A stretch of 64,000 nucleotides of DNA. Source: Escherichia coli (lineage in GTDB: Bacteria > Pseudomonadota > Gammaproteobacteria > Enterobacterales > Enterobacteriaceae). Location of the stretch: assembly GCF_030384885.1 (NCBI RefSeq), contig NZ_CP128613.1; one strand, written 5' to 3'. Below are positions 1 through 24,709 of this stretch, in pieces. Positions within the stretch are counted from its first letter, which is position 1; each line of letters begins with the position of its first letter. The position numbers and the translations under genes were made by a program. Below the pieces are notes generated by a model. It was given only the letters and a program-made list of their open reading frames with translations. It did no database searches and had not been told where the DNA came from.

Positions 1-39
1 GATACAGTAATATTAGGGTGGGATGCCAGTCTCAATAAT

Positions 40-783
40 ATGGATGGTCCGACAAAACAAGAATTTGAAGAGATGTTGGAACCAGAAGGTTTAGATTTGA
101 ATAATTATCTCACCGACTCTTGCACACCTGTCAGGAAGGTTACAATTTCCCCGATGCTGGTTGAAAGAAACGTTCACGCCGAACCAAGTTGGAAGGAAGT
201 ATCTCTTACGGACCCCCGCATCACAGAGAACAGCATGCTGCAAAAATTTCTGTCTGATTATATGGAAAAAATTAATCCTGGAGTTCACGAATTAAACGCA
301 AGATTGAGATTACAATATATAGATGGGGATTTATTTGCACAAATATATGAATCAATTAGCTATGATGAGTTACTTCAAAATATCCAAAGCAATAGTTTTG
401 ATCTTCCGAGCGAAGATGAATGGGAATATTTATGTGGCGGTGGTTCCAGGACACTCTGGCGCTGGGGGAATAATTTCGACTATCAAATGAAAATCCCATT
501 TATTACTTCAGAAGAACCAACAACCTGGGATATAGAATGGCCTAATCAGTTTGGGTTGCAGATTGCATTTGATCCCTATCTTCAGGAAATTATTAATGAT
601 AAAGATATTCTTCTGAAAGGTGGCGATGGTGGGTGCAATCTCTGCGGAGGTGCTAATGTTGTATTAGGATTCTTGCCTGTGGCAACTTATTACAAAGGAT
701 ATAATAAACATACGGACGAATTAGAATATATGGATGACATTGGAGACAATTATACTTCTTATCGCAGAATAATTCGTTTATGA
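40..783 (+). CDS. hypothetical protein with FGE-sulfatase-like (SUMF1/EgtB/PvdO-type) domain
   Basis: 247-aa ORF; motifs SEDEWEYLCGGG, WRWGNN and PNQFGLQ resemble the conserved core of formylglycine-generating-enzyme-family domains; sits in AT-rich DNA. Confidence 0.45.
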   Translation: MDGPTKQEFEEMLEPEGLDLNNYLTDSCTPVRKVTISPMLVERNVHAEPSWKEVSLTDPRITENSMLQKFLSDYMEKINPGVHELNARLRLQYIDGDLFAQIYESISYDELLQNIQSNSFDLPSEDEWEYLCGGGSRTLWRWGNNFDYQMKIPFITSEEPTTWDIEWPNQFGLQIAFDPYLQEIINDKDILLKGGDGGCNLCGGANVVLGFLPVATYYKGYNKHTDELEYMDDIGDNYTSYRRIIRL

Positions 784-834
784 GTAAAAATTATATTTCA
801 GGACAAGAAGTTATGCTCGAGTCAAGCTAATGAA

Positions 835-2346
835 TTGCTTAACGCAAGGAATAAAAACGTATTGATGAACACTGGGAATTTCGAGTCGATACAAATCATG
901 ATCGCCGCGCAAGAGTGGCGTAGCCTGCCGCTGCATCTGCGTTTGTATCAGGCTTTTCGTCAGTTGGTGATTTCTGGCGCGTTGTCTGATGGCGCAAAAC
1001 TGCCGTCCGCTCGCGCACTGGCCCAGCAACTGCACCTTTCCAGAGATACCATCGAAAATGCCTATTCCCAGCTCCACCGCGACGGTTTTATGGCTCGCAG
1101 GCAGGGGGCCGGGAGTTTCGCCAGCCGCCAGGGGATACCGCATATTCAGGGCCAGCATGCGCAACCACCCTCGCCCGGACAAGTACCGGCTTTAAGCGCT
1201 CGCTGGCAGCCAATTGCCGATCGCGCAGTCTCTTTCGATGCCCGCCAGATGCAGACCTTTACGCTTGGCCTGCCGGAAACGCGAAACTTCCCGCTAAACA
1301 TTTGGCAGAACTTTTCCCGCCAGATCCAACGTGAGCAGGCGCATACGCTGATGTTAAATAGCGATCCGCAGGGCGAGCCACAGCTGCGCCAGCAAATTGC
1401 GCATTACCTTAATTTTGAACGCGGCGCGAAGGTAGATGCCGGGCAGATTGTGATTGTCAGCGGCGCACGGCAGGCGTTCTGGCTGTGCGGGCAACTGCTG
1501 GCAGAGGCCGGACAGTCGGTGGCGATGGAAAATCCGGGCTATCCCGGCGCGCGTCAGGCGTTTTCTGCCGCACAGCTTAATCTTCTTCCCGTTGAAGTGG
1601 ATGACGCCGGGATCCGGGTGGATAAACTGCCGCCCGCGCCGCTGGTTTACGTCACGCCCTCGCACCAGTTTCCTTCCGGTCATTTGCTCACGCTGGCGCG
1701 GCGTCATGCCCTGATTGCCTGGGCGCAGGCGCACAATGCATGGATTATCGAAGACGACTACGACAGCGAATTTCACTACACCAGCGCGCCCGTCGCCTGT
1801 CTGCAAGGGTTAGACTGCGAGCAACGCACCCTGTATGTCGGCACTTTCAGCAAAACGCTCTATCCCGGCCTGCGCATCGGTTATCTGGTGGTGCCGACGT
1901 CGCTGGCTGCGCACTTTGCCGCCGCGCGTAATTTGCTTGATGGCGCAACGCCTGCGTTATCCCAACTAACGCTGGCGCGATTTATCGAGTCCGGTCATTT
2001 TGCCGCCCATATTCGCAACATGCGCAGTATGTACGCAGTGCGACAGGCGAGCCTGGCAGAGGCTATTCATCAACACTTAAGTGAATGGGTCACGCCAGTG
2101 GTGACATCCGGTGGGTTACAAATGCCCTGCTGGCTGCATGAAGGTATTGATGAGCAACAGACGCTAAATGCCGCGCGCCGCGCCGGGTTAAACATCGCCG
2201 GAATGCGCCAGTTCTGGCTGACGCACCCCGCGCCCGCGGGCTGGCTGCTGGGATTTGCCGCCTTTACCCCCTACGAGATTGAACAGGGCGTCAAGCGTCT
2301 GCGGGCTGCATTATGCACTGAAAACGTGCGCCCAGCCGGGTCATAA
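835..2346 (+). CDS. MocR/GntR-family transcriptional regulator with PLP-dependent aminotransferase-like domain
   Basis: 503-aa ORF; N-terminal HTH-like segment (LPSARALAQQLHLSRDTIENAY) followed by an aminotransferase-fold domain with candidate PLP lysine (TFSKTLYPG); true start probably an internal Met near 898. Confidence 0.7.
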   Translation: MLNARNKNVLMNTGNFESIQIMIAAQEWRSLPLHLRLYQAFRQLVISGALSDGAKLPSARALAQQLHLSRDTIENAYSQLHRDGFMARRQGAGSFASRQGIPHIQGQHAQPPSPGQVPALSARWQPIADRAVSFDARQMQTFTLGLPETRNFPLNIWQNFSRQIQREQAHTLMLNSDPQGEPQLRQQIAHYLNFERGAKVDAGQIVIVSGARQAFWLCGQLLAEAGQSVAMENPGYPGARQAFSAAQLNLLPVEVDDAGIRVDKLPPAPLVYVTPSHQFPSGHLLTLARRHALIAWAQAHNAWIIEDDYDSEFHYTSAPVACLQGLDCEQRTLYVGTFSKTLYPGLRIGYLVVPTSLAAHFAAARNLLDGATPALSQLTLARFIESGHFAAHIRNMRSMYAVRQASLAEAIHQHLSEWVTPVVTSGGLQMPCWLHEGIDEQQTLNAARRAGLNIAGMRQFWLTHPAPAGWLLGFAAFTPYEIEQGVKRLRAALCTENVRPAGS

Positions 2347-3397
2347 TCTCATACGGGATGGTGTTGCAGGCAGCGGCAACCTGTTCCAGCGTCTGGCCTG
2401 CGCCAATAAATTCCACCTTATCGCCCGCTGTCGGCGTGACGGCGCTGGCATCGACCATAAAGCTGTCCATACAAACCCGCCCCAATACCGGTAACCGCAC
2501 GCCGCGCCAGCATACGCCCGCCGGAGGACGCATATTTCGCGGAACGCCATCCGCGTAACCCGCGGATATCGTAGCGATACGCAGCGGACGCGTGGCGGTA
2601 ATCGTACTGCCATAGCCAACTGGCGTTCCCGCCGGGACATCCTGCACGCGCAGAATAGTTAGCGTCAGCGTAAAAGCCGGTTTTAGCGGCCTGGAAAACC
2701 ACGGCTGGGCGACGCCAAACAGCGCAATCCCCGGACGGCAGAGATCTTCCCGCCAACCTGGTTGCAAAAACATTCCGCAGGAGTTCGCCAGCGAAAATCG
2801 GCTGCTGGGGAAAACCGTTTTTGCCTGCTGGAATAGCGCGTGTTGCGCCACATTTAACGCATGATCCGGCCTGTCGGCGTTCGCCAGATGGCTGATGATA
2901 TAGTCCGGCGCAGGCCAGTTACGCTCACGAAATATCGCCGCCAGACGCATCAGTTGTTGCGGCATCACGCCCAGCCGCGACATACCGGAATCGAGCTGGA
3001 TCATCACCGCACGCCGCTGCTGGCGCGTTTCCAGTAACGTAAGCCACGCCATCACCTGGTCAATGGAATTGAGCAATGGCGTGATCTGCTGCGCGTAACA
3101 ATACGCCATCGCCTCCGGCATAACCCCATTAAGCACTACCACCATCGCATCAGTGGGCAGGATTTTACGCAGCGCCACGCCCTCCGAAAGCTGTGCCACA
3201 AAAAAGATCCGGCAGTTCGCCGCATACAGGGCGGGCGCAATCGCCTCCGCCCCCAGACCATAGGCATTGGCTTTCAACACCGCGCCACATTGCGCAGGGG
3301 CAACATGGCGCGCCAGCGTGCGATAATTATCGACGATGGCGGCGAGATTGACGCACATAACGCCGCACGCCGCCTGGATTTCAGTAGAAGTCATCAT
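2291..3397 (-). CDS. alanine racemase family protein (PLP-dependent)
   Basis: 368-aa ORF with PLP-lysine motif VLKANAYGLG typical of alanine racemases; start overlaps the stop of the upstream SHMT-like gene. Confidence 0.7.
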   Translation of the reverse strand: MMTSTEIQAACGVMCVNLAAIVDNYRTLARHVAPAQCGAVLKANAYGLGAEAIAPALYAANCRIFFVAQLSEGVALRKILPTDAMVVVLNGVMPEAMAYCYAQQITPLLNSIDQVMAWLTLLETRQQRRAVMIQLDSGMSRLGVMPQQLMRLAAIFRERNWPAPDYIISHLANADRPDHALNVAQHALFQQAKTVFPSSRFSLANSCGMFLQPGWREDLCRPGIALFGVAQPWFSRPLKPAFTLTLTILRVQDVPAGTPVGYGSTITATRPLRIATISAGYADGVPRNMRPPAGVCWRGVRLPVLGRVCMDSFMVDASAVTPTAGDKVEFIGAGQTLEQVAAACNTIPYEIMTRLGARFQCIMQPADA

Positions 3398-4632
3398 TGA
3401 TAAGACAACGGGTAGCGGTTGGTTAGTTGTATTACTTTTTGCTCAATATCGGCGCAAATGCCTGCGATATCTGACGAGTTGATGGCGAAAATGATTTCAC
3501 TTATCCAGTCAGCAATAAGCACAAAATCATCCGCCTTCATCCCACGCGTGGTGCAGGCCGCGCTGCCAATACGGACCCCGGAGGTAATCGACGGCGGCTG
3601 CGGATCGCCCGGCAGGGTGTTTTTATTGACCGTGATCCCCGCCAGTTCGAGAAAGTACTCCACCTGTGCGCCGGTTAACCCCTGCGGGCGCAGGTCGATA
3701 ATCCCCAGATGGCAGTCGGTGCCGCCCGTTAACAGCGTCAGACCGCGCTGCGCCAGTTGCTGGCACATCGCCTGCGCATTGTCGATAACCTACCCGGCGT
3801 AACGTTTAAATTCTGGTTGTAATGCCTCGCCAAGCGCCACCGCTTTCGCCGCGATAACGTGCATCAACGGCCCGCCCTGCAAACCGGGAAAGATGGCGCT
3901 GTCGATTTTTTTCGCAAGCCTGGCGTCATTGGTGAGGATCATGCCGCCGCGCGGCCCGCGCAACGTTTTATGCGTGGTGGTGGTGACCACATCAGCATAC
4001 GCCAGCGGCGAAGGAAAACAGCCGCCCGCCACCAGCCCGGCAAAGTGCGCCATATCCACCAGCAAAATGGCATCAACGGCATCGGCAATGCGGCGAAAAC
4101 GGGCAAAATCATAGTGGCGTGGATAAGCCGATCCTCCGGCAATAATTAACCGTGGGCGCTCGCGTAGCGCGATCATCTCGACCTCATCCATATCAATCAG
4201 GCCACTATGGGCATCGACGCCATAGTGAAAGGCGTTAAACCATTTGCCGGATTGATTGACCGGAGAACCGTGCGTGAGATGCCCGCCGCATTGCAGGCTC
4301 ATGCCAAGAATTTTGTCGCCGGGCTTCAGCAACGCCAGATAGACCGCCTGATTCGCCTGGCTGCCGGAGTGAGGCTGCACATTGACGTAACGCGCGCCAA
4401 AGAGCTGCTGCGCGCGGGTTATCGCCAGCATCTCAACCTCATCAATAAACTTACAGCCGCCGTAATAGCGATGCTGGTAATAACCTTCGGCGTATTTATT
4501 GGTTAACACCGACCCCTGCGCCGCGAGAACGGCGGGGCTTACGAAATTCTCCGAGGCAATCAGTTCCAGCGACTGCTGCTGGCGCTGTTGCTCCTGGTTA
4601 ATCAATGCAAAAAGTGGATCGTTATTTATCAT
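3394..4632 (-). pseudogene. serine hydroxymethyltransferase (GlyA-like) paralog interrupted by an in-frame TAG at 3790-3792
   Basis: ORFs 3790..4698 and 3394..3768 are in the same frame; both halves align to SHMT ([17 protein letters not shown]-lysine motif; GITVNKN); the stop sits where GlyA has a Gln in the YQQQV region. Confidence 0.65.
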
Positions 4633-4864
4633 GCGCTTCCCCCGCAAATTCATCATGCGATGATTTTCGCAGGGAAAACCTCGTCCGCACCCTGCCACTT
4701 TTTAGACTGAGCGCAGACCACCTATGTCGTTTTACTTAAAAGAAGAGGGAAGAAGGCTCCAGGCATCTCCATATGCGATTCTGGTTGGTAATACATCATA
4801 TTCCAGCTGCTCTTATCCGCCTACGTTATTGCATATACGGATAAGGCAGCCTCAATACGTACTT

Positions 4865-6430
4865 TTACTTGATATCTTTCACGCGCATACCGTTGATCTG
4901 TTCATCCGTGATGGTATTACCCGCTTTAAAGTAATCAACCACCGCGTGATAAACGTAATAACCGCCCGTCGTATTGCGCGCTTTACCCTCGGTAAACGCG
5001 GTAAAACCATCTCCACCATCAGCAAGGAAACTCTGAGTGGCAATGTGGTAAACCGTCGCATCTTCAATCGGTTCGCCATTCAGAGTCAGCGAGATAACCC
5101 GCTGACCAACCGGCTTGCTGCTGTCGTACTTCATTTCCAGGCCTTTCGATACCTGTAAAACGCCATTACTTAAACTTGCGCCGTGTTCCATCAAACTGCG
5201 TAATTGTTTACCCGTGAGTTCCATCGTCACCAGTTCGTTGGGGAACGGGAAGGTACTGATGACGCCACCCATCGTAATTGCACCCGCCGGGATCTCATTG
5301 CGGATACCGCCAGAGTTGGTTAACGCCAACTGGGTATTTTTACCCGCCGCTGCCAGCAAAGCGTCCGCCGCCAGATTCCCGAGAGAAGCCGATTCACCAT
5401 AGGCACGTTTCAATTCAACTGGCGATTGCGCCACCGTTTGCTGCACGACTTCATCCAGCTTTTTATTCCAACTATCAATCACCTGTTTTGTTTGCGGATC
5501 GGGCTTCCACTCGTCGGCGTAAAGGGTTTTAAGCTCGAAGTTTTTCACCGTAAAAGTGTGCGGCTTCTCTTTGTAGTCTAGAACCAGTTTACCCACATCA
5601 ATCCCGCCGCTGTCAGTGGAGAGGATTAACGTATTGCCGACTTTAATCGGTTCCGGCGTACCCACATGTGCATGCCCGGTGATCAAAATATCCAGCCCTT
5701 TCACCTGACTTGCCGTCTGAATATCTTTATCCAGTGCGCGGCGCACATCTGTGCCCCCCATACTGGACTGGCGGGCCGGAACACCTTCGTGAATCAGCGC
5801 AACGGTCAAATCAACCTTGCCTTTGAGTTCATCGATATAACGTTGTAGCCATTTAATTTCATCACGCGCCTCAATACCCACTCGCGTTGCCGCAGATACC
5901 GTATCATTAAAGGCAAATACACCGTGCAAACCAATCACGCCAATTTTCACGCCGTCTTTTTCAATGATGGTATAGGGCTTATCCCAGAATGATTTACTGC
6001 TGTTCTGATAAAAAACATTACCCTGCACAATCGGGAATTTTGCCTGACTCAACTGTAATAACGTATTGTCCCAGCCGTGATCAAATTCATGATTACCTAT
6101 AGTGGCCGCATCGAACGGCATGGTATTCATAATATCGATAATCGCCTTGCCTTTAGTCAGGCTGCTAATATACGGCCCGGTAAAATAGTCACCCGCATCA
6201 AAAAACCAGGTCGCTTTGTTTTTAGCTTTTTCTTGTTTAACAAGCGTAGTGATATTTGCCCAGCCGCCAATATCTCGTTTACCGTCAGCAATCCACGGCA
6301 CTTTATAAGGCTCTACATGTGCATGGAGGTCGTTGGTATAAATGATGGTGACATCTTTGGCGCAAGCCCAAAACGGCAGTGTTAATGCGATACCCGCAGC
6401 AAGCATTTTAATTTTCATAAACAATCCCAT
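4865..6430 (-). CDS. secreted bifunctional metallophosphatase / 5'-nucleotidase (UshA family), paralog 1
   Basis: 521-aa ORF; signal-peptide-like N-terminus; metallophosphatase motifs [23 protein letters not shown]; C-terminal 5'-nucleotidase domain. Confidence 0.8.
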
Positions 6431-6477
6431 CCAGTGAGATAAAGGATTGCTACATTACGTTCTGAAAGGCTTTTTTA

Positions 6478-6493
6478 TGTGAGAATACTCACA
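6478..6493. promoter_or_regulatory. perfect consensus CRP-type site TGTGA-N6-TCACA in divergent promoter region
   Basis: sequence TGTGAGAATACTCACA read directly between the divergent nucleotidase gene (4865..6430) and the zinc-ribbon gene (6551..7678). Confidence 0.4.
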
Positions 6494-6550
6494 TCCAGAG
6501 GCGATAACTGTAGGACAAAATCAACGACCTTATGAAATCGTTGGTGATAT

Positions 6551-7678
6551 ATGTCAAATCTGTTTGCGATTAATGTCTGTAAAACGTTCGGTTGTCGAAA
6601 TTTGGGATTGGCCTCATCGGAAGATTACAGTTGGCCAGACTATAAACTGGGTTTTCCGGCACTGCACTGCCAGGCATGCGGAAGTTACCCCCCTTTGTTT
6701 GATGAACAACAATTTCGTGACTGGTTGTCAGTTCACATGACTGCGTGTGCCATAGAAACAGGGCATTTTTGTCCATCATGCTATTGTAAAGAAAAGATTT
6801 TTTATGGCCACAACCCGCAGGGAACACAACGCGTTCAATGCCGTTCATGCAAAAAAGTCTGGACTCCGAAACAGCAGCCAGCAAGAGAAATTACGTATCC
6901 CCAGTCCATTGAAACCGTTCAACTGTTCATGCCCTTTCAAGGAGCCAGCGCAGTACAAAAGCTCTATGTTTTAGTCAGTCTTGACGCCACTCGTGGCAAC
7001 ATCCTTCATCTCTCCACGAATTATACGCAACATCAGACAGGAGACAGTCTGCGGTACAGTTACAGAGGCAATACAGAACCAACTGAGCACCATAGCGATA
7101 TTGCGCAGAGGGTAGATATGCGTGAAGCACAATTCTTGCGCCGGAGCCAGTTCGATGAAATTCAGTATGGCAGTGCTGTGCTCAAGCGCAACGGCAAGGG
7201 AGCCATACTACGCCCGGTTATCACGGCACACGGGCATTTCAGAATACTGAAAATCCGCTTTCCACATGTCAAAACGCATATCATTTCACACGAATGTTTT
7301 CTGAGAGGCGCAATTATTACAGCCTGGGCAGATCAGTTCCGCCAACAACAAGGCGAACTTTGGTTCGTAGAGGAAGAAATCAGCGACCGTAATGCTGATA
7401 TTCCCTGGCATTTTCAGGGAACGACATACCATGGTTGGTGGCAAAATCAGTGGCAACGCTGGGGGCAGGGGAATAACAGCAAGATGGTCTGCCTGCTCAC
7501 AGGAGTCTCCTTAGAAAGGGGCGCAAATGTTTCTCTGGCAACCAGTCGTTGCTTTATCACATGGCTGACAGACCAACACGACTTTACCCAAAGCGCGTTA
7601 TTATCCGCAGGTCGCGTAACGAAAATGCTGACCTCACTGGCGTTAAAATACAATGAATCGCTCACTCCATCTTGTTAG
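6551..7678 (+). CDS. hypothetical protein with N-terminal Cys-rich zinc-ribbon (IS1 InsA-like / transposase-type zinc finger)
   Basis: 375-aa ORF; Cys pattern CPSCYC...QRVQCRSCKKVW resembles InsA-type zinc ribbons; the rest has no motif I recognise. Confidence 0.45.
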   Translation: MSNLFAINVCKTFGCRNLGLASSEDYSWPDYKLGFPALHCQACGSYPPLFDEQQFRDWLSVHMTACAIETGHFCPSCYCKEKIFYGHNPQGTQRVQCRSCKKVWTPKQQPAREITYPQSIETVQLFMPFQGASAVQKLYVLVSLDATRGNILHLSTNYTQHQTGDSLRYSYRGNTEPTEHHSDIAQRVDMREAQFLRRSQFDEIQYGSAVLKRNGKGAILRPVITAHGHFRILKIRFPHVKTHIISHECFLRGAIITAWADQFRQQQGELWFVEEEISDRNADIPWHFQGTTYHGWWQNQWQRWGQGNNSKMVCLLTGVSLERGANVSLATSRCFITWLTDQHDFTQSALLSAGRVTKMLTSLALKYNESLTPSC

Positions 7679-7907
7679 TCAATACACTCGACAAACGACC
7701 ATAAATTAATGGGATCACTATTTCTCATTTAATTAAATATATGAATGTATGACTGAAAAATATAATCACAGTCAATGTTTAATTAATAACATTATTTGTT
7801 ACTAAGATCACATAATACTTTCCTGACCTATGTTTACATAAAAATAAGACACGGTGTTCCTTTTATTTAAATAATTCAACCAATGTAACAACCCCTATCA
7901 AGGAGGG

Positions 7908-9461
7908 ATGATGAGAACTGTATTTACGACTTTATCAGTCATATTCAGCGTGATGTTTTCTCACAGTATACTAGCTCAGGACGTTACTATTTATTATACG
8001 AATGATATTCACGCACATGTCAATCCGGCAAAAATTCCCGCTGTTGATAAGAACAGACTTGTAGGTGGTATGGCTAATATTGCAGGCATCGTTAATGAAG
8101 CGAAGAAAAAAAACAAAGATGTCTTTTTCTTTGATGCAGGCGACTATTTTACCGGTCCGTATATCAGTACCCTGACCAAAGGTGAAGCTATTATTGATAT
8201 CATGAACACCATGCCCTTTGATGCGGTGTCCGTTGGTAATCACGAGTTCGATCACGGCGTGCCCAATATGGTATCTCAGTTATCAAAAGCAAAATTCCCC
8301 ATTCTGCTGGGAAATATTTACTACACCGATACAAATAAACCAGTTTGGGATCATCCGTGGACCATTATCGAAAAAGATGGTTTAAAGATTGGTGTGATTG
8401 GATTGCATGGTGCATTCGCTTTCTATGATACAGTCGCGGCAAAAGCACGTGAAGGCGTAGAAGCCAGAGACGAAATTAAATATTTAAATAAAGCACTTGC
8501 AGAATTAAAAGGTAAAGTCGACATTACCGTTTTGCTAATTCACGAAGGTGTTCCGGCGCGTCAATCAAGCTTTGGTAGTAAAGATGTGGAGCGGCTACTA
8601 CAGGCAGATATTGAGACAGCTAAAAAAGTGAATGGTGTTGATGTCTTAATTACCGGTCACGCACATGTCGGAACACCGCAACCAATAAAAGTTAATAACA
8701 CATTAATTGTATCTACCGATGCATACGGCACCGACATCGGAAAACTTGTGCTTGATTACAATCCGAAAACAAAGAAAATTGATAGTTATAATGGTGAGTT
8801 AATCACCATCTTTGCAGATCAATTTAAACCTGACACCATCGTTCAAAATACTATCGATAAATGGAGCATAAAGCTTAACAAAATAACACAGGAAGTTGTC
8901 GGCCATTCTCCCGTAGTTTTAACACGTGAGTATGGCAGTTCTTCTTCTACCGGTAACCTTATTCTAGATGCAATGATGGAAAAAACACCTGATGCCATTG
9001 CCGGATTTCAAAATAGCGGTGGGATGCGAGCTGATTTTCCTAAAGGTGATATCACACTGGGAGATGTTATTAGCACATTCCCCTTTAATAATGACCTCAT
9101 CGAGATGGATTTGACGGGCCGCGATCTCAAATCATTGATGACGCATGCAACCAATCTAACTAACGGTGTGTTACAGGTTTCAAAAAGCGTTGCGGTTGTC
9201 TATGACAGCAAAAAACCACTCAACCAACGGTTAATCTCTTTCACCATTAACGGCAAACCCGTGGAAGATAATCAAACATATCGTATTGCCACGCACTCCT
9301 TTTGTGCCAGTGGTGGTGACGGTTTTGAAGCATTTTTGAATGGAAAAAATGTGAAGACGATACCGGGAACAACCTCGGCGGAATCTATCATCGATTATTT
9401 CAAAAATCATAAACCTGTCACCCCAGACTTAACTAAACGAGTCATGGACGTCGCCAAATAA
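7908..9461 (+). CDS. secreted bifunctional metallophosphatase / 5'-nucleotidase (UshA family), paralog 2
   Basis: 517-aa ORF; signal peptide; same metallophosphatase motifs as paralog 1 ([23 protein letters not shown]). Confidence 0.8.
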   Translation: MMRTVFTTLSVIFSVMFSHSILAQDVTIYYTNDIHAHVNPAKIPAVDKNRLVGGMANIAGIVNEAKKKNKDVFFFDAGDYFTGPYISTLTKGEAIIDIMNTMPFDAVSVGNHEFDHGVPNMVSQLSKAKFPILLGNIYYTDTNKPVWDHPWTIIEKDGLKIGVIGLHGAFAFYDTVAAKAREGVEARDEIKYLNKALAELKGKVDITVLLIHEGVPARQSSFGSKDVERLLQADIETAKKVNGVDVLITGHAHVGTPQPIKVNNTLIVSTDAYGTDIGKLVLDYNPKTKKIDSYNGELITIFADQFKPDTIVQNTIDKWSIKLNKITQEVVGHSPVVLTREYGSSSSTGNLILDAMMEKTPDAIAGFQNSGGMRADFPKGDITLGDVISTFPFNNDLIEMDLTGRDLKSLMTHATNLTNGVLQVSKSVAVVYDSKKPLNQRLISFTINGKPVEDNQTYRIATHSFCASGGDGFEAFLNGKNVKTIPGTTSAESIIDYFKNHKPVTPDLTKRVMDVAK

Positions 9462-9495
9462 AATATCATTTATCAGTCTATTTATTTAACAAGGA

Positions 9496-11121
9496 ATGCG
9501 AATGAAAACAGTGCAGCGTACTTTACTTGCCGCAACATTGCTGACTATTTTTTCGGTCTCGGTCATGGCGCAGGATGTCACGATTATTTATACAAATGAT
9601 CTTCACGCTCATGTGGATTCTTATAAAGTGCCGTATATCGCAGACGGAAAACGCGACATTGGCGGCTTTGCCAATATATCTACTTTAGTAAAACAAGAGA
9701 AAGCGAAAAATAAAGCCACCTTTTATTTTGATGCTGGAGACTATTTCACCGGCCCTTATATCAGCAGTCTGACAAAGGGCGAAGCAATAATTGACATTAT
9801 GAATACCATGCCTTTTGACGCAGTATCAATCGGTAATCATGAGTTTGACCATGGCTGGGATAATGCCCTGCGACAATTAAGCAAAGCGAATTTTCCTGTT
9901 TTATTGGGCAATGTTTATCATAAAGAGAGTGAAAAACCCTTCTGGAACAAGCCCTACACCATCCTGGAAAAAGATGGCATCAAGATTGGTATTATTGGGC
10001 TACACGGCGTATTTGCATTTAATGATACGGTCTCGGAGCTCTCTCTCCAGGGACTCGATAATGACAATAATAACCGCTTTGATAAATCTTCCGAGACCCT
10101 TAAGAATCAGGGGATTGAAGCACGTGATGAAGTGAAGTATTTGCAGCATTATATCGACGAGTTACGTGATAAGGTTGACCTCACTGTGGCGCTGGTTCAT
10201 GAAGGCGTTCCGGCGCGTCAGTCCAGCATTGGCAATACAGATGTTAGACGCGCTCTTGATAAAGATATTCAAACCGCTAGCAAGGTGAAAGGATTGGATA
10301 TTCTGATTACCGGGCATGCCCACGTCGGAACGCCAGAACCAATCAAAGTCGGCAACACCTTAATCCTTTCGACTGATAGTGGCGGTATCGATATTGGTAA
10401 ATTAGTCCTTGATGTCAACCCTACAGCTCGTACCCATAAAATGAAGAGCTTTGAGCTGAAAACAGTTTATGCCGATGAATGGATACCCGATCCAACGACA
10501 CAAAAAGTTATCAATGGCTGGAATAAAAAACTGGCGGATATTGTACGCCAACCAGTGGGTGAATCATCGATTGCATTAACTCGCGCCTATGGTGAGTCAT
10601 CGCAACTAGGCAACCTGTTTACCGATGCAATGCTTGTCGCTGCTCCGACTGCACAGATTGCATTGATAAACTCCGGCAGCTTACGTGCGGATATAAATGC
10701 AGGCACGATTACCTTTGGCGACATTACCAGTACATTCCCCTTCAAGAATGAACTTACTGAAATGGATCTCAGCGGTAAGGATCTGCGTAACCTACTGGAA
10801 CACGGGGCATCGCTTACCAATGGCATCCTGCAAATGTCAAAAGGCGCAGAAATGCGCTATACCCCGCAGAAACCAGTAGGTCAGCGCATAGTATCTTTTA
10901 AAATTAATGGTGAAGAGATCGTTGATACGAATATTTACCATGTTGCAACAACGACTTTCCTTGCACTGGGGGGCGATGGTTTTCTGGCATTCAAAGAAGG
11001 GAAAAATGTTCAGGTCCGCGCCGGAAAAAACATGTCCGATGTCGTGATCGATTATTTGAAGAAAGGCCACAAGATTACGCCTGCACAGGTAAATGAAATG
11101 CGGGTGGACGTTAGCAAATAA
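9496..11121 (+). CDS. secreted bifunctional metallophosphatase / 5'-nucleotidase (UshA family), paralog 3
   Basis: 541-aa ORF, closely similar to paralog 1 by eye, with a short inserted segment (LQGLDNDNNNRFDKSSETLKNQG). Confidence 0.8.
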   Translation: MRMKTVQRTLLAATLLTIFSVSVMAQDVTIIYTNDLHAHVDSYKVPYIADGKRDIGGFANISTLVKQEKAKNKATFYFDAGDYFTGPYISSLTKGEAIIDIMNTMPFDAVSIGNHEFDHGWDNALRQLSKANFPVLLGNVYHKESEKPFWNKPYTILEKDGIKIGIIGLHGVFAFNDTVSELSLQGLDNDNNNRFDKSSETLKNQGIEARDEVKYLQHYIDELRDKVDLTVALVHEGVPARQSSIGNTDVRRALDKDIQTASKVKGLDILITGHAHVGTPEPIKVGNTLILSTDSGGIDIGKLVLDVNPTARTHKMKSFELKTVYADEWIPDPTTQKVINGWNKKLADIVRQPVGESSIALTRAYGESSQLGNLFTDAMLVAAPTAQIALINSGSLRADINAGTITFGDITSTFPFKNELTEMDLSGKDLRNLLEHGASLTNGILQMSKGAEMRYTPQKPVGQRIVSFKINGEEIVDTNIYHVATTTFLALGGDGFLAFKEGKNVQVRAGKNMSDVVIDYLKKGHKITPAQVNEMRVDVSK

Positions 11122-11135
11122 TAAAAAAATTATAA

Positions 11136-11166
11136 TGCCATTCATTCACTGAATGGCATTATTTTC
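11136..11166 (+). terminator. rho-independent terminator after nucleotidase paralog 3
   Basis: inverted repeat AATGCCATTCA-ttcac-TGAATGGCATT followed by a T-run. Confidence 0.6.
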
Positions 11167-11198
11167 TCTAAATCAACAATAGATAATGAGATATATTT

Positions 11199-12059
11199 AT
11201 GTGTATAAAAAAGCACGGGATAGCTTTATCGATTCTATTAATACCTTGCATTGGAAACGCTCAGAAAATTAAAAGTGAGGAAGGCTGGTTACATCAAAGC
11301 TTGAATGTCATTGGTCGCACAGACTCTCGCTTTGGCCCAAGGCTGACTAACGACCTCTACCCTGAATATACTGTAGCAGGAAGAAAAGACTGGTTTGATT
11401 TTTATGGTTATGTTGATCTACCAAAATTCTTTGGCGTCGGCAGTCACTATGATGTTGGGATCTGGGATGAGGGCTCACCACTATTTACGGAAATAGAACC
11501 TCGGTTTTCCATTGACAAATTGACCGGATTAAATCTTGCGTTCGGCCCTTTTAAAGAATGGTTCATTGCAAACAACTATGTCTATGATATGGGTGACAAC
11601 CAGTCATCCCGGCAAAGTACATGGTATATGGGGCTTGGTACAGATATCGACACGGGTCTACCAATTAAGCTTTCTGCCAATATATACGCCAAGTATCAGT
11701 GGCAAAACTATGGTGCCGCTAATGAAAATGAATGGGACGGATATCGATTCAAAATAAAATATAGCATTCCTCTTACCCATTTATTCGGAGGGCGATTGGT
11801 ATACAATAGTTTTACTAACTTTGATTTTGGATCCGATCTTGCGGACAAATCACACAATAATAAACGAACCAGTAATGCTATTGCTTCAAGCCATATCCTT
11901 TCCCTGCTATATGAACACTGGAAATTTGCATTTACACTACGTTATTTTCACAACGGTGGACAATGGAATGCTGGGGAGAAAGTTAACTTCGGAGATGGTC
12001 CATTTGAATTAAAAAACACAGGATGGGGAACCTATACTACTATTGGTTATCAATTTTAA
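11199..12059 (+). CDS. nucleoside-specific outer-membrane channel, Tsx family (paralog of tsx)
   Basis: 286-aa ORF with signal peptide; long conserved blocks shared with Tsx ([15 protein letters not shown]; [26 protein letters not shown]); ends in aromatic residue typical of beta-barrels. Confidence 0.85.
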
Positions 12060-12240
12060 ATCAGGTGATGTTTTAGATATTTTTACTTAATGCCATTTTG
12101 TAATTGTCATAAATAACTTCACCATTCACACTGTGAATTCATCGCTCAACACAAAAGCCCCCTTATTACCGGGGCACTGACCAAAGGCAAAATGACAATC
12201 AATCACCACCTCCGCAGGAGGTGGTTTAGAGGTGACAACA

Positions 12241-12275: not shown

Positions 12276-14708
12276 CTACAACAACTGCGCCAGACGGTTA
12301 ATATCCGACTGAATCGCCCCGGCGGTGACGTCGCGCCCTGCGCCTGGCCCACGGATCACCAGCGGGTTGTCGCGATACCAGCGGCTTTCGATGGCAAAGA
12401 CGTTATCGCACGGTAGTAGTGATGCCAGCGGATGGTCTTCTCGCACCGCTTCCACGCCTACTCGCGCTTTGCCGTTAGCATCGAAACGCGCCACGTAGCG
12501 CAACACCAGCCCCATTTCACGGGCCGCTTCCAACCGTTGTACCATCTGCTCATTAAGTTCATCGCCATTTTCAAAGAAATGGTCGATGCTGCCACCTTCG
12601 CAATGGGTTGGCACCAGTGATTCAACACGCACCTGGTCCGGTTCAATGTTGTAACCCGCTTCACGCGCCAGAATCACCAGCTTGCGCATCACATCTTTGC
12701 CGGAGAGGTCATCACGCGGGTCAGGTTCAGTTAAGCCCTGCTGCCACGCCTGATCCACCAGCTCAGTAAACGGCACGCTACCGTCGAATTGCAGGAACAG
12801 CCAGGAGAGCGTGCCGGAGAAGATCCCGCTGATCGACAAAATAGTGTCGCCGCTGTCGATCAGATCGCGCACGGTATGGTTGATCGGCAAACCTGCGCCG
12901 ACGGTGGCGTTGTATAGCCAGTGACGCCCGGTTTTTTCGAACGCGTCGTGGATCTGTCGATATTTATTGCTGTCGCTGGCTCCCGCCAGTTTGTTGGCAC
13001 TGATGACGTGGAAACCGTGGCTGGCGAAATCGAGATACTGATCAGCAAGCTGCTGGCTGGCAGTAACGTCCAGCACCACTAAATCATCATACGGATGGGC
13101 ACGCATCCACAGGAACAGCGACTCTTCATCCTGTTCGACGGCTTCATCATTAAAGAAGGCTAGCGCACGGCTGGCGTCCAGCCCGTCATAGCTCAACAGG
13201 CTGCGACGGCTGTCCACCACGCCTGCCAGCACAAATTCAAAGCCGGTGCGCGCCGAGAGCGTGCTCTGCTCACGGGCGAACAGTTCCAGCCAGCGGGAAC
13301 CGATATTGCCCTTACCGAACAATACCAGGCCGATGCGTTTTTCTGCGCGGAAGACGGACTGATGCAGCCCCTGAATCAGGCTTTCGGTAGGTCCGGTACG
13401 CAGTACTGCCACCAGGCTGATGCCGTCATCGGACTGCCAGGTAAATTCGACCGGCTGGCCTTTCAGTTGCTGCCAGAAGCGGTGGCAATGCAGCGGGTTA
13501 CGGGTGACGCCTGCACCAACCATCGCCACCAGCGCCAGCCCCTGACGCAGGCGCAGTTCGCCAGGTAATCCTGCTTCGTCGAGGATTTTCAGCGCACTAT
13601 CGGCCACTTCCGAGGTGTAGCAAAATTGCAGCAACTGGCGATCGTTATGCACGCCAACCGCCAGTGGGCGCACCTGAGCACGTTTCAGGATTTGGTCGAT
13701 CTCTTTATGCGCCAGTTTGAAATCCTGACTGGCGGGCACCTGAAACTCAATCAAACAGACATCATCGTGGCTGGTGACAATACGCGCGCCAGTACCGGAA
13801 GCCAGCACGCGTTCAATGCGCGTGGAACCTTGATCCGGCGTGTAGCTACAGCGCAGCTGCAGGTCGATTTCACTGCCAGAAACTGGCTGTAAAGTACGGG
13901 CGTGAAGAACGGGGGCCGCCAGACGCGCCAGTTCACTGGCTTCATCAAGACGCAGCAATGGCAGCAGGCAGGCATCTTTCACTTTACGCGGGTCAGCGCT
14001 GTATACCCCGGCGACGTCGCTCCAGATGGTTACGCGGGAAACTCCCGCCAGCGCACCGATTTGTGTCGCGGAATAGTCGGAACCGTTACGCCCCAGCAGC
14101 ACCGTTTCACCGGCGTTGTTACGGCTGATAAACCCGGTCACCACCAGACGTTTGCCCGGATGTTGTACCAGTAGCTGTTGCAGCAACGGGTAAGAAAGCC
14201 CTTCATCAACCTGCGGCTGCGCGGCGCGTTCAGCGCGTAAAAACTCGCGGGCATCAAGCCAGGCCGCAGGCAATCCTTGTTGATTAAGTACCGCAGACAT
14301 CAGGCGCGCCGACCACACTTCACCGTGGCCCACCACTTCCGCATACACCGCATCGTTAATACCGCTGTCGAGCAGCGCCGCCAGGCGTTCCAGATCGCTG
14401 ACAAAAGCGCTAATGAGGCTATCGGCTTCTTCGGCGGGTAGCAGGCCGCTAATCAGATCGCACTGATAGCGACGCAGCGTTTGTTGAACCTGATGCGCAG
14501 AGAGACGATCGGTCTGGCTTAGTTTCAACCAGTTAATCAACTGGTTAGTGGTGCTACCGGCGGCGGAAACCACCATCATATCGTCAGGCTGAGAGTACTC
14601 CGCCATAATGCCCGCGACACGCAAATAACACTTCACATCAGCCAGACTACTGCCACCAAATTTATGCAGTTGACGACCTTTCGCCCCTGCCTGCGCAATC
14701 ACACTCAT
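12276..14708 (-). CDS. metL: bifunctional aspartokinase II / homoserine dehydrogenase II
   Basis: 810-aa ORF recognised as MetL; immediately downstream of metB as in the metBL operon. Confidence 0.95.
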   Translation of the reverse strand: MSVIAQAGAKGRQLHKFGGSSLADVKCYLRVAGIMAEYSQPDDMMVVSAAGSTTNQLINWLKLSQTDRLSAHQVQQTLRRYQCDLISGLLPAEEADSLISAFVSDLERLAALLDSGINDAVYAEVVGHGEVWSARLMSAVLNQQGLPAAWLDAREFLRAERAAQPQVDEGLSYPLLQQLLVQHPGKRLVVTGFISRNNAGETVLLGRNGSDYSATQIGALAGVSRVTIWSDVAGVYSADPRKVKDACLLPLLRLDEASELARLAAPVLHARTLQPVSGSEIDLQLRCSYTPDQGSTRIERVLASGTGARIVTSHDDVCLIEFQVPASQDFKLAHKEIDQILKRAQVRPLAVGVHNDRQLLQFCYTSEVADSALKILDEAGLPGELRLRQGLALVAMVGAGVTRNPLHCHRFWQQLKGQPVEFTWQSDDGISLVAVLRTGPTESLIQGLHQSVFRAEKRIGLVLFGKGNIGSRWLELFAREQSTLSARTGFEFVLAGVVDSRRSLLSYDGLDASRALAFFNDEAVEQDEESLFLWMRAHPYDDLVVLDVTASQQLADQYLDFASHGFHVISANKLAGASDSNKYRQIHDAFEKTGRHWLYNATVGAGLPINHTVRDLIDSGDTILSISGIFSGTLSWLFLQFDGSVPFTELVDQAWQQGLTEPDPRDDLSGKDVMRKLVILAREAGYNIEPDQVRVESLVPTHCEGGSIDHFFENGDELNEQMVQRLEAAREMGLVLRYVARFDANGKARVGVEAVREDHPLASLLPCDNVFAIESRWYRDNPLVIRGPGAGRDVTAGAIQSDINRLAQLL

Positions 14709-17136: not shown

Positions 17137-17250
17137 ATGATGAAAAAAATAATTCCCGCCGTAGTCTGTTTGTTGCTTTGTAGTTGCACGACCTTTCCGC
17201 AAGCTGTCGCTCCGGCAGGGAAAGATTACGAAAGCCCGCTCCCAGCAAGG
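17137..17250 (+). other. lipoprotein-like ORF fragment running into the ISAs1 element
   Basis: ORF 17137..17514 begins MMKKIIPAVVCLLLCSCTT (signal peptide with lipobox-like LCSC) and then overlaps the 3' end of the transposase gene on the opposite strand. Confidence 0.25.
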
Positions 17251-18480
17251 ACTGACGCCAGATACTTTCTGTCCATGGCTGCTTTTCGCATCTTACGTCT
17301 TAACCCTGCCTTGAATACCTTATCATTCGTTAAAATATTAATAGCGATGTGCCGTATCCCTGAAAATAATTCTGCGGCGTTTCCTCTTCGTATTTTGCAG
17401 TCGTCTTCATTCATTACCACGTCCAGACGCCAGTGCAGCTTATTCTCCACGTGCCAGTGGTTTCGGATTGCTGTGGCGAACTTTTCTGCGGTTAAATCAG
17501 CAGAACTGATATAATATCTGACCGTCATTTCTGGCTCTTTCTTTTGTTCTGCTATTATTGACCGAAAGGAGAATGCCACGCATAATTTCTTCAGTCCTTT
17601 CCATTCAAACGTGAAATCAATAAGTTCATCACGGACATCGCAAACAATATGAAGACGGATTTCTTCTCTGCCGTGACTCTTTTCACTCATTGCGTAACTG
17701 TCATGCTCTGGATTATTTAATTCTTTCAGCGGAAATTTTTCCTCGAAGGCTTTATTTAGCCGCCCCTGGTTTCCTTTTACAGCGAATACATAATCACCGC
17801 CCTGTTTTTGTATCTTCTCTGCAATATCTTTCTGGCAACCCATCGCATCAGTTGTGATGATTTTTCCTTTAATATCCAGCATGTTAAGAAGTTCAGGGAT
17901 AGCTGTAATTTCATTGGATTTCTCATCCGTCCTGATCTGTCCGATGACCAGACTGTGCATTGTTGAGAATGCACTAATGACATGAATCGCTCCCCTGCGG
18001 CGACTCTTGTCATAAGAATGCCGGAGTGTTTTTCCATCAATTGCGATGACGTCTTTATCATCTGAAGTATGGCAATCTCGCATCCAGTTAATAAAGCACT
18101 CGTGAAATTTTGAAGGACTGATACAGGATACAACTCTGGCGATGGTATCGTGAACAGGAATACCATTTTCAAAATCACCATATTGTTTTAAAAAATCGCG
18201 ATGTGCTTCCCCAAAATCCTCTATATGTTCCCAGCCTTCTGCACCAGAAATAACGGCGCAAATAGTCAACAGTAGAATATCCGATAATTTATGTTCCACT
18301 TTCCAGGTTTGTCTGTAATCGGGGATAATAGAAATATGTTCCATCAATTTTTTAAGTTCCATTCTTTTCTCCTTAATTATGTAAGGAGTATTTGATCATG
18401 TATAAGCAATAAAAAAACAGCTTCAGGCAATGAGGAATATCTCAATTTTTAAACATAAAATGCGAATTGTTTAGTACAAA
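17140..18480 (-). mobile_element. ISAs1-family insertion sequence (H-repeat element); ends approximate
   Basis: single transposase ORF filling a segment of about 1.3 kb, typical of H-rpt elements; terminal repeats not determined. Confidence 0.6.
17226..18362 (-). CDS. ISAs1-family transposase (H-repeat-associated protein)
   Basis: 378-aa ORF recognised as the H-repeat (H-rpt) protein found in Rhs elements. Confidence 0.85.
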
Positions 18481-18489
18481 AAAGCAGCG

Positions 18490-19100
18490 TTAAGTGAGTA
18501 GGCCACCGGAACCTCCCCGACAGCCTCTCGCAGAACCGTACGTGAAACTCTCGCTTCATACGGCTCCCGTCAGGCAAACGCGCTTCCTGGTCCTGCTTTC
18601 CAGTGGGCAAACAACTCCGGCTTCTCTTTTGACAGCCTTTCCATTAGCTGACACGCCTTCGTCTTTCTATACCGCAGGGTTTTATATTTCTTTCTCGCCC
18701 ACGCAATCAGCGTCAGATTAATATATCTGCATACTTTCTTCATCGCTGATTTGTGGTATCTCGCGTAATAATTCAGCCACCCCAATATTATCGGATTCAG
18801 CCACTTCGCAATATCTTCGAGACTCATCTCCACCCTGCGTCTGATCCACAGTTTCCTGAGTTTTCCAATCATGCCTTCGGGTTTACTCATCTCACTGTAT
18901 CTCACATAGGATCAGATCTCGTCTGATCGTTCCCCCTGCGCTCACTACCATGGCTCTTTACCACAGCAGCCGGGGTTGTTTGGGACCGACTTCCGACAGC
19001 AGATCCCGGTGGGCCTGCCACCATCTCTTCACAAGCTTATGCTTATTACATGCAAAACGTCCCGTTTTGCATCTTTGTGCCTACGGCACACCGTGATCTT
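18490..19100 (-). mobile_element. 5'-truncated group II intron remnant (maturase C-terminus plus RNA domains V and VI)
   Basis: ORF 18570..18905 carries a maturase-like motif (WLNPIILGWLNYYARY); downstream on the same strand, about 18532-18566, is GAGCCGTATGAAGCGAGAGTTTCACGTACGGTTCTG, which folds as a domain-V-like hairpin. Confidence 0.6.
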
Positions 19101-19111
19101 TCCCTGTCGGC

Positions 19112-19320
19112 ATGTTGACCACTGACGAATGGGGTAGTTACGCTAGAGAGTTACCAAAGGAGAAGCATCTGACTGGTAAGATTTTTACTCAGCATATTGA
19201 GCGTAACAATCTGACCCTGAGAACCCGAATCAAACGTCTGGCCCGCAGAACCATCTGTTTCTCGCGTTCTGTAGAACTTCATGAAAAAGTCATCGGTGCT
19301 TTTATCGAAAATATATGTTC
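19112..19320 (+). pseudogene. IS1-family transposase (InsB-like) C-terminal fragment
   Basis: ORF 19112..19426 contains TDEWGSYARELPK...FTQHIERNNLTLRTRIKRLARRTICFSRSVELHEKVIG, similar to the C-terminal part of IS1 InsB; no N-terminal part. Confidence 0.6.
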
Positions 19321-19395
19321 TACTAATTGGAGTCATCACCCTTCTGATGAGCTTTCCTTGGATGATTACCAGACTGAATACATAGCCAAAGATTT

Positions 19396-19719
19396 TTACC
19401 TCATTCTGCTTTTTTTTCTCAAATGACATATATTATATTTTACATCATATTCATAGGCATATGACATTCCCCCGCCCCCCATTATGTCATTGTGGGTTGA
19501 TGTTGGGCTTTCATAAAAAAATACATCTTTTTTTGAACTAGCATTAATTATATTTACTTTATATATTAAAATATTTTCTCCATCTGGAAATATTTTAGCC
19601 ACACAATATAAAGCAGCCAAATCCGAATTACTTAAAAATATATTGTCATCACTCATAACTCCAGCCATTAAATGACTGGAGACTAAAGCAAGGAAATAAC
19701 AACATTGTATTGCCTTCAT
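19396..19719 (-). CDS. putative immunity protein for the adjacent Rhs C-terminal toxin
   Basis: about 107 aa from internal Met (MKAIQCCYFLALVSSHLMAGV...), hydrophobic signal-peptide-like N-terminus; start codon lies 1 nt after the toxin stop with an AAGGGAG RBS; very AT-rich. Confidence 0.5.
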   Translation of the reverse strand: MKAIQCCYFLALVSSHLMAGVMSDDNIFLSNSDLAALYCVAKIFPDGENILIYKVNIINASSKKDVFFYESPTSTHNDIMGGGGMSYAYEYDVKYNICHLRKKSRMR

Positions 19720-19720
19720 T

Positions 19721-20275
19721 TTAATTACTCCCTTGCCTGATAATTGTAACTCCATTCCCTTTAGCTTTGGGATTATATTTTAGATAGGTGTTATTTGGTG
19801 TTCCCAAGTAACTACTGTATTCTTTTTTTCCCATTCCATTCATATAAGAATTCGTTAAATCTTTGCTTGAAAAATTTAGACTATCATAAACATCATTTTC
19901 TTTTGTTACTTTATTTCCTTTATCGTCAGAGTAAAAACCGTGAGTGTGATAATCGCCTACTCTCTCTGAACCTTCAGGGCATTTTATATTTCGCAAGTCT
20001 ACACTATCATTATCATTTGAACTTATCGGATTCATGGGGAAATATTCACCTTGCTTCTTACATATTAGTCCACCATATTCTTTATTCTCGTTAATTGATT
20101 CTCCATTACACATTGCCAATGCAAATATTCCAATATCATCTATATTTTTTGATTTAAATTCATATAATCCTAATGGATCCATGCCATTCACCGGGCTCAG
20201 CGGATATGTATACAGGTTCCATCCCCCCTTCAGCCCAATCGGATCCTGAGTGATATACCGCCCCTGTAACCGTCC
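19721..20275 (-). CDS. Rhs C-terminal tip: end of Rhs core (DPxGL motif) plus variable toxin domain
   Basis: reading frame encodes ...[35 protein letters not shown] followed by about 145 aa of low-GC sequence with conserved Cys/His (GDYHTHG); DPxGL marks the core/toxin boundary in Rhs proteins; no in-frame ATG at the 5' end. Confidence 0.6.
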
Positions 20276-20664
20276 TCACCGGGAAACAGGTGCTCAAAAT
20301 ACAGGCTTCTGCCGCCGTTATCACTGAGTATCAGAGTGTTATCGCGCAGCTGCAAGCGGATATCCGCAGGCATTTTCCAGCCGGGGCCGAGGCTCCCCAC
20401 CGGCGCGGGCGTTTTTGTCCGGTAACTGCTGTAGGTGCGGGAGAGGATGAACGGCAGCGGGCCGGGCAGGGCAAGGTCGGTTTCGCCGGGAAGGACCTTC
20501 GCACCGAGCAGCGGATTGACCGGATGGCCGGACGTCACCCCGCCGGGGCACACCGAACAGGCCACGCCGGTGGGGGCACCAATACGTACCCCGGCAGAAC
20601 CCTGGACAATGGGGCCACCATACTGCGTCATGTCGCCCTGACGCGCCGCCGGTTTTCCGCTCAT
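20230..20664 (-). pseudogene. Rhs N-terminal (PAAR-like) fragment, out of frame with the C-terminal tip
   Basis: 144-aa ORF MSGKPAARQGDMTQYGGPIVQGSAGVRIGAPTGVACSVCPGG... matches the conserved N-terminus of E. coli Rhs proteins for about 125 residues, then terminates. Confidence 0.7.
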
Positions 20665-20786
20665 CGTAAAATCCTTTTAAAATAAATAAGAACCAGAAGC
20701 CTAGCGCCAGTCAACAACAGGAAATGATAATGAGTTAACACCCCGGAATGTTTCAGAATTTATAAAAGGCAAATTACAGGCACAAA

Positions 20787-20815
20787 AAAAGCGCCGTGCG
20801 GCGCTTTTTTCGGAA
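20787..20815 (-). terminator. rho-independent terminator downstream of rpmE
   Basis: hairpin AAAAAAAGCGCCGTGCGGCGCTTTTTT immediately after the rpmE stop. Confidence 0.65.
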
Positions 20816-20823
20816 ATCCGGTC

Positions 20824-21075
<252 letters not shown>

Positions 21076-21079
21076 CTAA

Positions 21080-23437
<2,358 letters not shown>

Positions 23438-24618: not shown

Positions 24619-24709
24619 AGTAAACCTTTAAGACTGCCGTGACTGGTCAAAGGCCCGCCGCTTAAGTAACATGGCGGGCTGACGAACGAATAAATACAGC
24701 GAAACGATA

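Follow-up and report, generated by a model that had tools for sequence, protein, structure and literature searches.

The left edge of a 64,000-nucleotide window of Escherichia coli DNA (assembly GCF_030384885.1, contig NZ_CP128613.1; all positions are counted from window base 1) holds the greater part of a gene whose product is a soluble, acidic, cytoplasmic single-domain protein of a distinct, uncharacterised family of ~320–330 amino acids. For about 180 of its 324 residues the C-type-lectin-like fold of the formylglycine-generating enzyme (FGE) type is established. In gut Clostridia, members of this family occur in strings with recognised immunity and counter-toxin modules or are joined to them in one protein, and we consider the chances about even that the E. 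coli gene stands as an orphan copy of an immunity-type (counter-toxin) module which has this fold and resides in the cytoplasm. The association with polyimmunity is new but indirectly drawn, and the family itself, not yet characterised, is a variant inside a fold superfamily that is already known.

The original prediction placed an open reading frame (ORF) at 40–783 on the plus strand, and a frame does run there from ATG to stop, but the gene is not short, as had been supposed; it appeared so because the window edge cuts it. The full gene, annotated in strain 2013C-4282 as "hypothetical protein" (WP_000281214.1), comprises 975 nt and encodes 324 amino acids, with its start codon 192 nt upstream of window base 1 and a GAGGAA Shine-Dalgarno sequence 9 nt ahead of that true ATG, so that the reading frame is already open at window base 1 and the ATG at 40 falls inside the gene. 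(In the 2013C-4282 locus, L001, the coding sequence occupies 19809–20783, and a window position equals the L001 position minus 20000.) Window bases 1–1200 share 99.9% identity with strain 2013C-4282 and 98.8% with RMDEC465 and are missing from the remaining 5424 of 5426 complete E. coli genomes; within 1–783 the window differs from 2013C-4282 at one position, G308 for A, which replaces K by R. The features of the gene discussed below are as follows.

1..783, plus strand: FGE-fold gene, the 3' 261 codons plus stop of 324 (WP_000281214.1, its homologues and dN/dS).
40..783, plus strand: ORF seen earlier, its ATG being internal Met78 of the real protein (ORF listing and comparison with the annotated coding sequence).
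352..480, plus strand: the sole stretch aligned to FGE-family proteins by sequence profiles (residues ~182–224; 184–226 in Pfam), which holds LPSEDEWEYLCGGG and WRWGN (Pfam, phmmer and family profile).
541..558, plus strand: PNQFGL motif, P245–L250, counterpart of human FGE PNGYGL (alignment).
616..651, plus strand: KGGDGGCNLCGG (K270–G281), with D273, C276 and C279; its likeness to the KGGSYMC...C active-site stretch of FGE is at motif level only (alignment).

With 360 homologues at E<=1e-3, mostly full length (320–330 aa) and 36–85% identical, and with a dN/dS of 0.069 between E. coli and its Escherichia albertii orthologue, the ORF at 40–783 is far from a chance ORF. When 35 diverse family members are aligned, 28 columns are invariant, and these are shared across phyla.

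Taken alone, the E. coli protein remains below the Pfam threshold, scoring 20.7–21.2 bits against PF03781 (FGE-sulfatase), whose cutoff is 23.3, at an E-value of ~3e-4 and over residues 184–226 only, and phmmer puts ToxD first among PDB chains, at E = 0.004. Its relatives, however, match the model; of 35 family members, 31 do so at E<=0.01, the best at 9.6e-7, and the family profile finds ToxD, human FGE and other FGE-family chains in the PDB at 5e-6 to 9e-6. The product also has the three-dimensional fold of the FGE-sulfatase superfamily, with structural comparison figures of 12.0 to CalU17 and PvdO, 11.8 to SUMF2 and 11.5 to TvpA over alignments of 163–183 residues at ~3 Å. The FGE-like domain proposed originally is thus borne out by the relatives, the family profile and the fold, though not by the Pfam score of the lone protein, and because the relatives match the Pfam model and the family profile matches solved FGEs we regard the fold assignment as secure. 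The superfamily is recognised by a (F/V)VxVPGG start, LPTExEWEY, WGN, PNxxGL and (K/R)GG, and the protein has all of these core motifs, as EFVVVPGD, LPSEDEWEY, RWGN, PNQFGL and KGG, which hardly vary across the family; those named in the original prediction, SEDEWEYLCGGGS (EDEWEY at nt 412–429), WRWGN (457–471) and PNQFGL (541–558), were all found. Outside the FGE fold lie a 55-residue N-terminal extension and an insert of ~100 residues (between ~75 and 180). The protein is acidic (pI 4.46), and hydropathy reveals no signal peptide or membrane segment in its 324 residues, the maximum Kyte-Doolittle value over 19 residues being 1.31 and the N-terminal hydropathy ~0.

Whether the fold retains the activity for which it is named can be judged from the residues that the family keeps. 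Over 167 near-full-length family domains, conservation is 100% for E260, 99% for D273, 98% for N246, 95% for C279, 92% for C209 and 62% for C276. Cys209 (nt 433–435) aligns with position 150 of human FGE chain 2afy_X, which is Cys235 provided that the chain begins at residue 86, and Cys235 of human FGE is a structural disulfide cysteine. After the KGG strand the family reads D273-G-G-C276-x-x-C279, where the human enzyme, checked on PDB chains, reads KGGSYM-C336-x4-C341-x4-C346, with C336 and C341 as the catalytic pair that binds Cu(I). A profile of the C-terminal third matched no FGE-family enzyme in the PDB, and hhalign against the human FGE C-terminus aligned PNxxGL alone, at 1% probability. 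There are no conserved histidines (H27, H123, H160 and H301 all lie outside conserved columns) and no DinB domain, Pfam showing the FGE-sulfatase stretch alone; hence there is no iron site of the EgtB type. A synthase of the EgtB/OvoA/SenA type was considered and rejected, since DinB is absent, the N-terminal extension has only 55 residues and the four histidines are unconserved.

That the protein is a genuine FGE which matures a sulfatase encoded elsewhere is suggested by the fold, the core motifs and the two cysteines after the KGG strand, but several observations speak against it. Compared with SUMF1/FGE (PDB 1Y1E, 6MUJ, 5NXL), the present protein scores under Pfam's own threshold and aligns by sequence over only ~45 residues; the FGE catalytic region is not alignable, and the family has a CxxC with a poorly conserved first Cys rather than Cx4C. 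No sulfatase is encoded in the E. coli or E. albertii locus, and none is among the top 25 neighbour families, by frequency, that are listed for either of the neighbour sets described below, so the role in sulfatase maturation implied by the original prediction receives no support. FGE needs O2, whereas strict anaerobes (Oscillospiraceae, Faecalibacterium and Fusobacterium) are among the hosts of the family. The protein can hardly be a sulfatase-maturing FGE, and is probably neither an FGE nor an EgtB-type enzyme.

Other members of the superfamily use the fold as a non-catalytic scaffold, among them PorK/GldK of the type IX secretion system (T9SS) ring, PvdO, SUMF2, TvpA of diversity-generating retroelements (DGRs) and the FGE-like sensor domains of STAND/Avs proteins. 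PorK, PvdO, TvpA and SUMF2 act outside the cytoplasm, in the periplasm, at the cell surface or in the endoplasmic reticulum. The present protein differs from these scaffolds in having no signal peptide, no T9SS, pyoverdine or DGR context and no template or variable repeat. A variable protein of a DGR was accordingly discarded as a candidate, there being no template/variable repeat pair and a C-terminus that is conserved rather than variable. FGE-like domains have been reported as sensor domains of defence STAND proteins (bioRxiv 10.64898/2026.01.04.697583).

The case for an immunity function comes from the relatives. A profile search of 1.84 billion representative proteins gave 280 clusters at E<=1e-30, and with one genome per species relatives occur in 184 of 100,044 species, drawn from Firmicutes, Bacteroidota, Fusobacteria, Spirochaetes and Proteobacteria; the main hosts are gut Clostridia, Fusobacterium, Paenibacillus, Cohnella, Brevibacillus, Chitinophaga and a few enterobacteria. 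Several representatives are fused to DUF4261, DUF4241, DUF6966, DUF1963/YwqG, DUF5713 or TPR domains. From crude ORF calls in 75 loci we took the two nearest neighbours to either side, in all 260 proteins in sets of 132 and 128, and read the neighbour families from the 25 most frequent families listed per set. Among the 260 proteins are 10 neighbours with Tpt1/KptA, 7 with Imm-NTF2, 6 each with SUFU and DUF6966, 5 with NADAR and 3 with SUKH-1, the SUFU matches sitting inside TPR+SUFU+DUF7832+DUF4253 polyproteins of 1050–1676 aa. In 37 of the 75 loci an immunity-type module lies within three genes on either side of the family member. An Imm-NTF2 gene directly follows a fusion protein in one metagenomic locus (L016), and in another locus a DUF6966 gene and an FGE-fold::DUF4261 fusion adjoin a serine recombinase. 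The FGE-fold module and its partners recur at 80–97% identity, either as separate genes or fused in differing orders, which fits autonomous cassettes, arranged as beads on a string.

Two further observations on these loci may be recorded. The shuffled cassettes of gut Clostridia (L039–L096; for example L071 3533–11728, L065 4450–8636 and L043 4431–6960), which are fused to the FGE-fold module or stand as separate neighbours, include a 221-aa module, the first 490 aa of an 810-aa DUF7738+DUF6892 protein, a DUF4241 module and parts of the TPR+SUFU+DUF7832+DUF4253 polyproteins; a search of the literature for DUF4241 found nothing. Enzymes of RNA-repair type, whose common theme is the reversal of damage to nucleic acids, also recur beside family members, namely a Pnkp-like kinase-phosphatase-RNA ligase, TudS (2-thiouracil desulfurase), Tpt1/KptA in 10 loci and NADAR in 11 loci (for example L036 143–3355 of Fusobacterium sp. 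oral taxon 370, and Tpt1 at L066 6971–7537).

Imm-NTF2, SuFu, SUKH and LRR have been described in the literature as immunity families, and polyimmunity loci and polyimmunity proteins are defined there as arrays and fusions that contain no toxin (Zhang et al. 2012, PMC3482391). The loci described here resemble them in being same-strand arrays of relatives with no toxin family in the Pfam tables, in having Imm-NTF2, SuFu, SUKH-1 and LRR neighbours and in the variable order in which they are fused to other modules. They differ in that the FGE fold is not among the ~90 immunity families of that work (neither 'FGE' nor 'C-type lectin' occurs in its text), in that no cognate toxin is known and in that the E. 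coli copy lies outside such an array, placement within one being found at the family level only. A partial precedent exists for the fusion to YwqG, as YwqG-family proteins have been noted to carry sporadic N-terminal fusions to a domain of C-type-lectin fold (Burroughs & Aravind 2014, PMC4275035). One relative (P0164) is such a YwqG/DUF1963 (TYPP) fusion, its FGE-fold module spanning residues 129–273 of 778; that work, however, reads the fusion as protein-protein interaction only, and the present family is neither defined nor named there.

The nearest functional precedent is Tsi3, an FGE-fold immunity protein of a type VI secretion system (T6SS) (bioRxiv 10.1101/2021.05.21.445229). Like the present family, Tsi3 (WP_032046197.1 in A. 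baumannii) has the FGE fold outside sulfatase maturation and is encoded by a patchy accessory gene; it lacks the canonical FGE catalytic apparatus, as the present family probably does too, and for both an anti-toxin role is proposed. The E. coli protein could on these grounds be an immunity protein of the Tsi3 type that binds a T6SS effector of the Tse3 kind, the more so as Tsi3 homologues often occur in variable copies and the T6SS is found in E. albertii and many E. coli, yet we judge this very unlikely. The tsi3 genes are found within vgrG-tse3-tsi3 modules of Proteobacteria that bear a T6SS, mostly as tandem arrays; their homologues are reported from Proteobacteria, and 98% of the hosts bear a T6SS. 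The present family is mostly found in Firmicutes, Fusobacteria and Bacteroidota, is solitary in Escherichia and is set apart by both context and hosts; Firmicutes and Fusobacteria are not known to have a T6SS. No vgrG, tse3 or DUF4123 genes lie near the E. coli or E. albertii gene, and VgrG, DUF4123 and PAAR are not among the 25 most frequent neighbour families listed. The family differs further in its N-terminal extension, its large insert and its conserved constellation of Cys, Asp and Glu.

If the immunity function is correct, the FGE-fold family would be one more member of the polyimmunity repertoire, and the E. coli copy, as an orphan, would protect the cytoplasm against a toxin arriving from competitors. 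It might bind the toxin, in the manner of FGE-fold Tsi3, or undo the damage by means of a site formed about the conserved E204/E206, N246, E260, D273, C209 and C279. A promoter of its own in the AT-rich 190 nt upstream would drive expression, divergent from metF. A more specific proposal, which we hold to be doubtful, is that the fold is used catalytically, in that the protein would be a cytoplasmic Cys/Asp/Glu enzyme, possibly metal-dependent, that reverses an RNA or protein modification inflicted by a toxin, is deployed together with Tpt1, NADAR and the Pnkp-like RNA ligase and has spread horizontally from gut anaerobes into Escherichia.

A number of observations weigh against an immunity function. 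No family member was found beside a cognate toxin, no toxin family is among the 25 most frequent neighbour families listed per set, and PADLOC assigned the FGE-fold gene to no defence system. Beside the copies in E. coli, E. albertii, Paenibacillus, Cohnella and Chitinophaga stand unrelated or housekeeping genes, so the immunity context rests mostly on loci of gut Clostridia that are related and not independent of each other, and the neighbour-family counts are raw, not controlled for background. The DUFs that serve as fusion partners are without demonstrated immunity function. Finally, ~40% identity between the E. coli and Firmicutes proteins, with near-invariant polar and Cys residues, is above that of typical toxin-binding immunity proteins; such strong conservation hints at catalysis or ligand binding, and fits a site of that sort at least as well as a binding surface.

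These last points bear also on the main rival explanation, that the protein is a stand-alone thiol- or metal-dependent enzyme of the FGE/EgtB/PvdO superfamily which acts on a peptide or small-molecule substrate apart from inter-bacterial conflict. NCBI names some relatives 'SUMF1/EgtB/PvdO family nonheme iron enzyme', the high conservation of E260, D273, N246, C279 and C209 and the low dN/dS are what an enzyme would show, the KGGDGGC of the family is at motif level in register with KGGSYMC(336) of human FGE, and many copies have ordinary neighbours. Set against this are the missing EgtB-type iron site, the presence of C276 in only 62% of members, a C-terminal third without detectable sequence relation to solved FGE-family enzymes and the lack of a conserved operon partner, which is usual for a pathway enzyme. 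We regard an enzyme of this kind as somewhat unlikely but worth serious consideration, and it would merge with the immunity function if the protein were an enzymatic immunity factor, like NADAR and Tpt1.

The E. coli gene is under purifying selection, as follows from its dN/dS. Between E. coli and E. albertii its dS is 1.28, ~3x that of the flanks (metF 0.50, metL 0.39); its alleles either are of greater age than those flanks or evolve faster. If the gene were a decaying passenger that no longer functions in E. coli, this would account for its extreme rarity there, its foreign, AT-rich composition and the promoter-like sites upstream, which are no commoner than in shuffled sequence (a terminator scan also found none); the copies of Superficieibacter electus, frameshifted near residues 184–189 (L034 6001–6974), and of Listeria costaricensis, frameshifted near residues 230–239 (L018 6001–6959), also speak for it. 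The frame is nonetheless intact in both E. coli and E. albertii despite so high a dS, all family-invariant residues are kept and the Shine-Dalgarno sequence is in place, and we think decay highly improbable. Carriage by a phage or plasmid was also looked for, with no phage match and five plasmid matches, one of them near full length at the family level; in PHROGs the protein gave only a weak match to a 'kinase' family, through the same 45-residue FGE motif.

The genomic setting of the gene is a mosaic. Upstream lies metF, a core gene transcribed divergently, and the first 159 nt upstream of metF match K-12, beyond which an insert of 12,661 nt, reaching precisely to the stop codon of metL, takes the place of 190 nt of the spacer that K-12 has between metL and metF. 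The FGE-fold gene comes first in this insert and constitutes its module A. The original prediction had left room for a toxin or sulfatase partner just upstream of the window, where there is instead the metF promoter and metF, with no sulfatase or toxin gene. The remainder of the insert is laid out as follows.

784..864, no strand: junction of modules A and B; E. albertii homology stops ~7 nt before the stop codon, and GC climbs from here.
865..4698, no strand: module B, ~59% GC, with a MocR/PdxR-like regulator, an alanine racemase and a serine hydroxymethyltransferase-like (SHMT-like) gene (ORFs, GC and annotation).
865–2346, plus strand: MocR/PdxR-like regulator, in module B.
2291–3397, minus strand: alanine racemase, in module B.
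3394–4698, minus strand: SHMT-like gene with an internal stop, in module B.
4865..12059, no strand: module C, 38–50% GC, with a 5'-nucleotidase (minus strand), a 375-aa Cys-rich 'cytoplasmic protein', two 5'-nucleotidases and a Tsx-like channel (ORFs and annotation).
12276, minus strand: metL begins (annotation).

In sliding windows GC is 0.36–0.41 over 1–900, 0.46 in 751–1050 and 0.60 from 901 on, and the FGE-fold gene has 36.5% GC (30.8% at third codon positions) against 52/59% for metF and 58/63% for metL. An AT-rich gene beside GC-rich DNA, as described originally, is therefore what the sequence shows; over 1–12200, however, the plot does not resolve into a single GC-rich cluster but into three blocks of ~37%, ~59% and 38–50% GC. 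The modules also occur separately. Module A is carried by 2 of the 5426 complete E. coli genomes, module B by 3 and module C, a 5'-nucleotidase/Tsx block of five genes between metF and metL, by 660 (e.g. SMS-3-5), which have this block only; E. albertii has module A alone between metF and metL, with the same left junction, and E. coli GF4-3 has module B behind a PTS (phosphotransferase system)/MalI pair and no module A. The metF-metL insert is thus shown to be a mosaic of separately acquired modules, three where at least two had been suspected. The metF-proximal position of the FGE-fold gene is common to three enterobacterial lineages, the S. electus copy likewise adjoining metF, and no direct or inverted repeats were found flanking the gene.

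Several features of the insert and its surroundings deserve mention. The SHMT-like gene is split into ORFs of 124 and 302 aa, a defect shared with 2013C-4282 and GF4-3, and is intact in RMDEC465. Module C looks like a nucleotide-scavenging module, its three 5'-nucleotidase/metallophosphatase genes being paralogous, its Cys-rich protein (6551–7678) carrying CxxC pairs and its Tsx-like channel being of the nucleoside type. The last 164 nt of metL (window 12277–12440) are 92% identical to K-12, and E. albertii is at 94% over the same stretch; the value of 92% suggests a recombination tract imported along with the island. Farther along, between yiiX and rpmE (~17,200–25,200), lie an RHS core protein with dsORF-f3, an IS1 remnant, a group II intron reverse transcriptase and an ISAs1 transposase, an insert lacking in RMDEC465, which otherwise has the metF-metL island too. 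A hypothetical protein of 208 aa (WP_123057342.1) is encoded between rraA and zapB (~34,070–34,696), and downstream of rhaM only two short pseudogene fragments are left of the frv PTS operon (~60,400–60,950).

Within E. coli the importance of the gene is more local than general, in that it is a rare accessory marker for the metF-metL recombination hot spot. If the immunity function holds for the family, the FGE fold, so far known in such a role only from the T6SS protein Tsi3 in Proteobacteria, would join the immunity repertoire of Gram-positive and anaerobic gut bacteria, a protein now annotated as 'hypothetical' or 'nonheme iron enzyme' would have a testable function, and there would be a handle on the co-shuffled DUF4241, DUF4261, DUF6966, DUF1963, DUF7832 and DUF4253.

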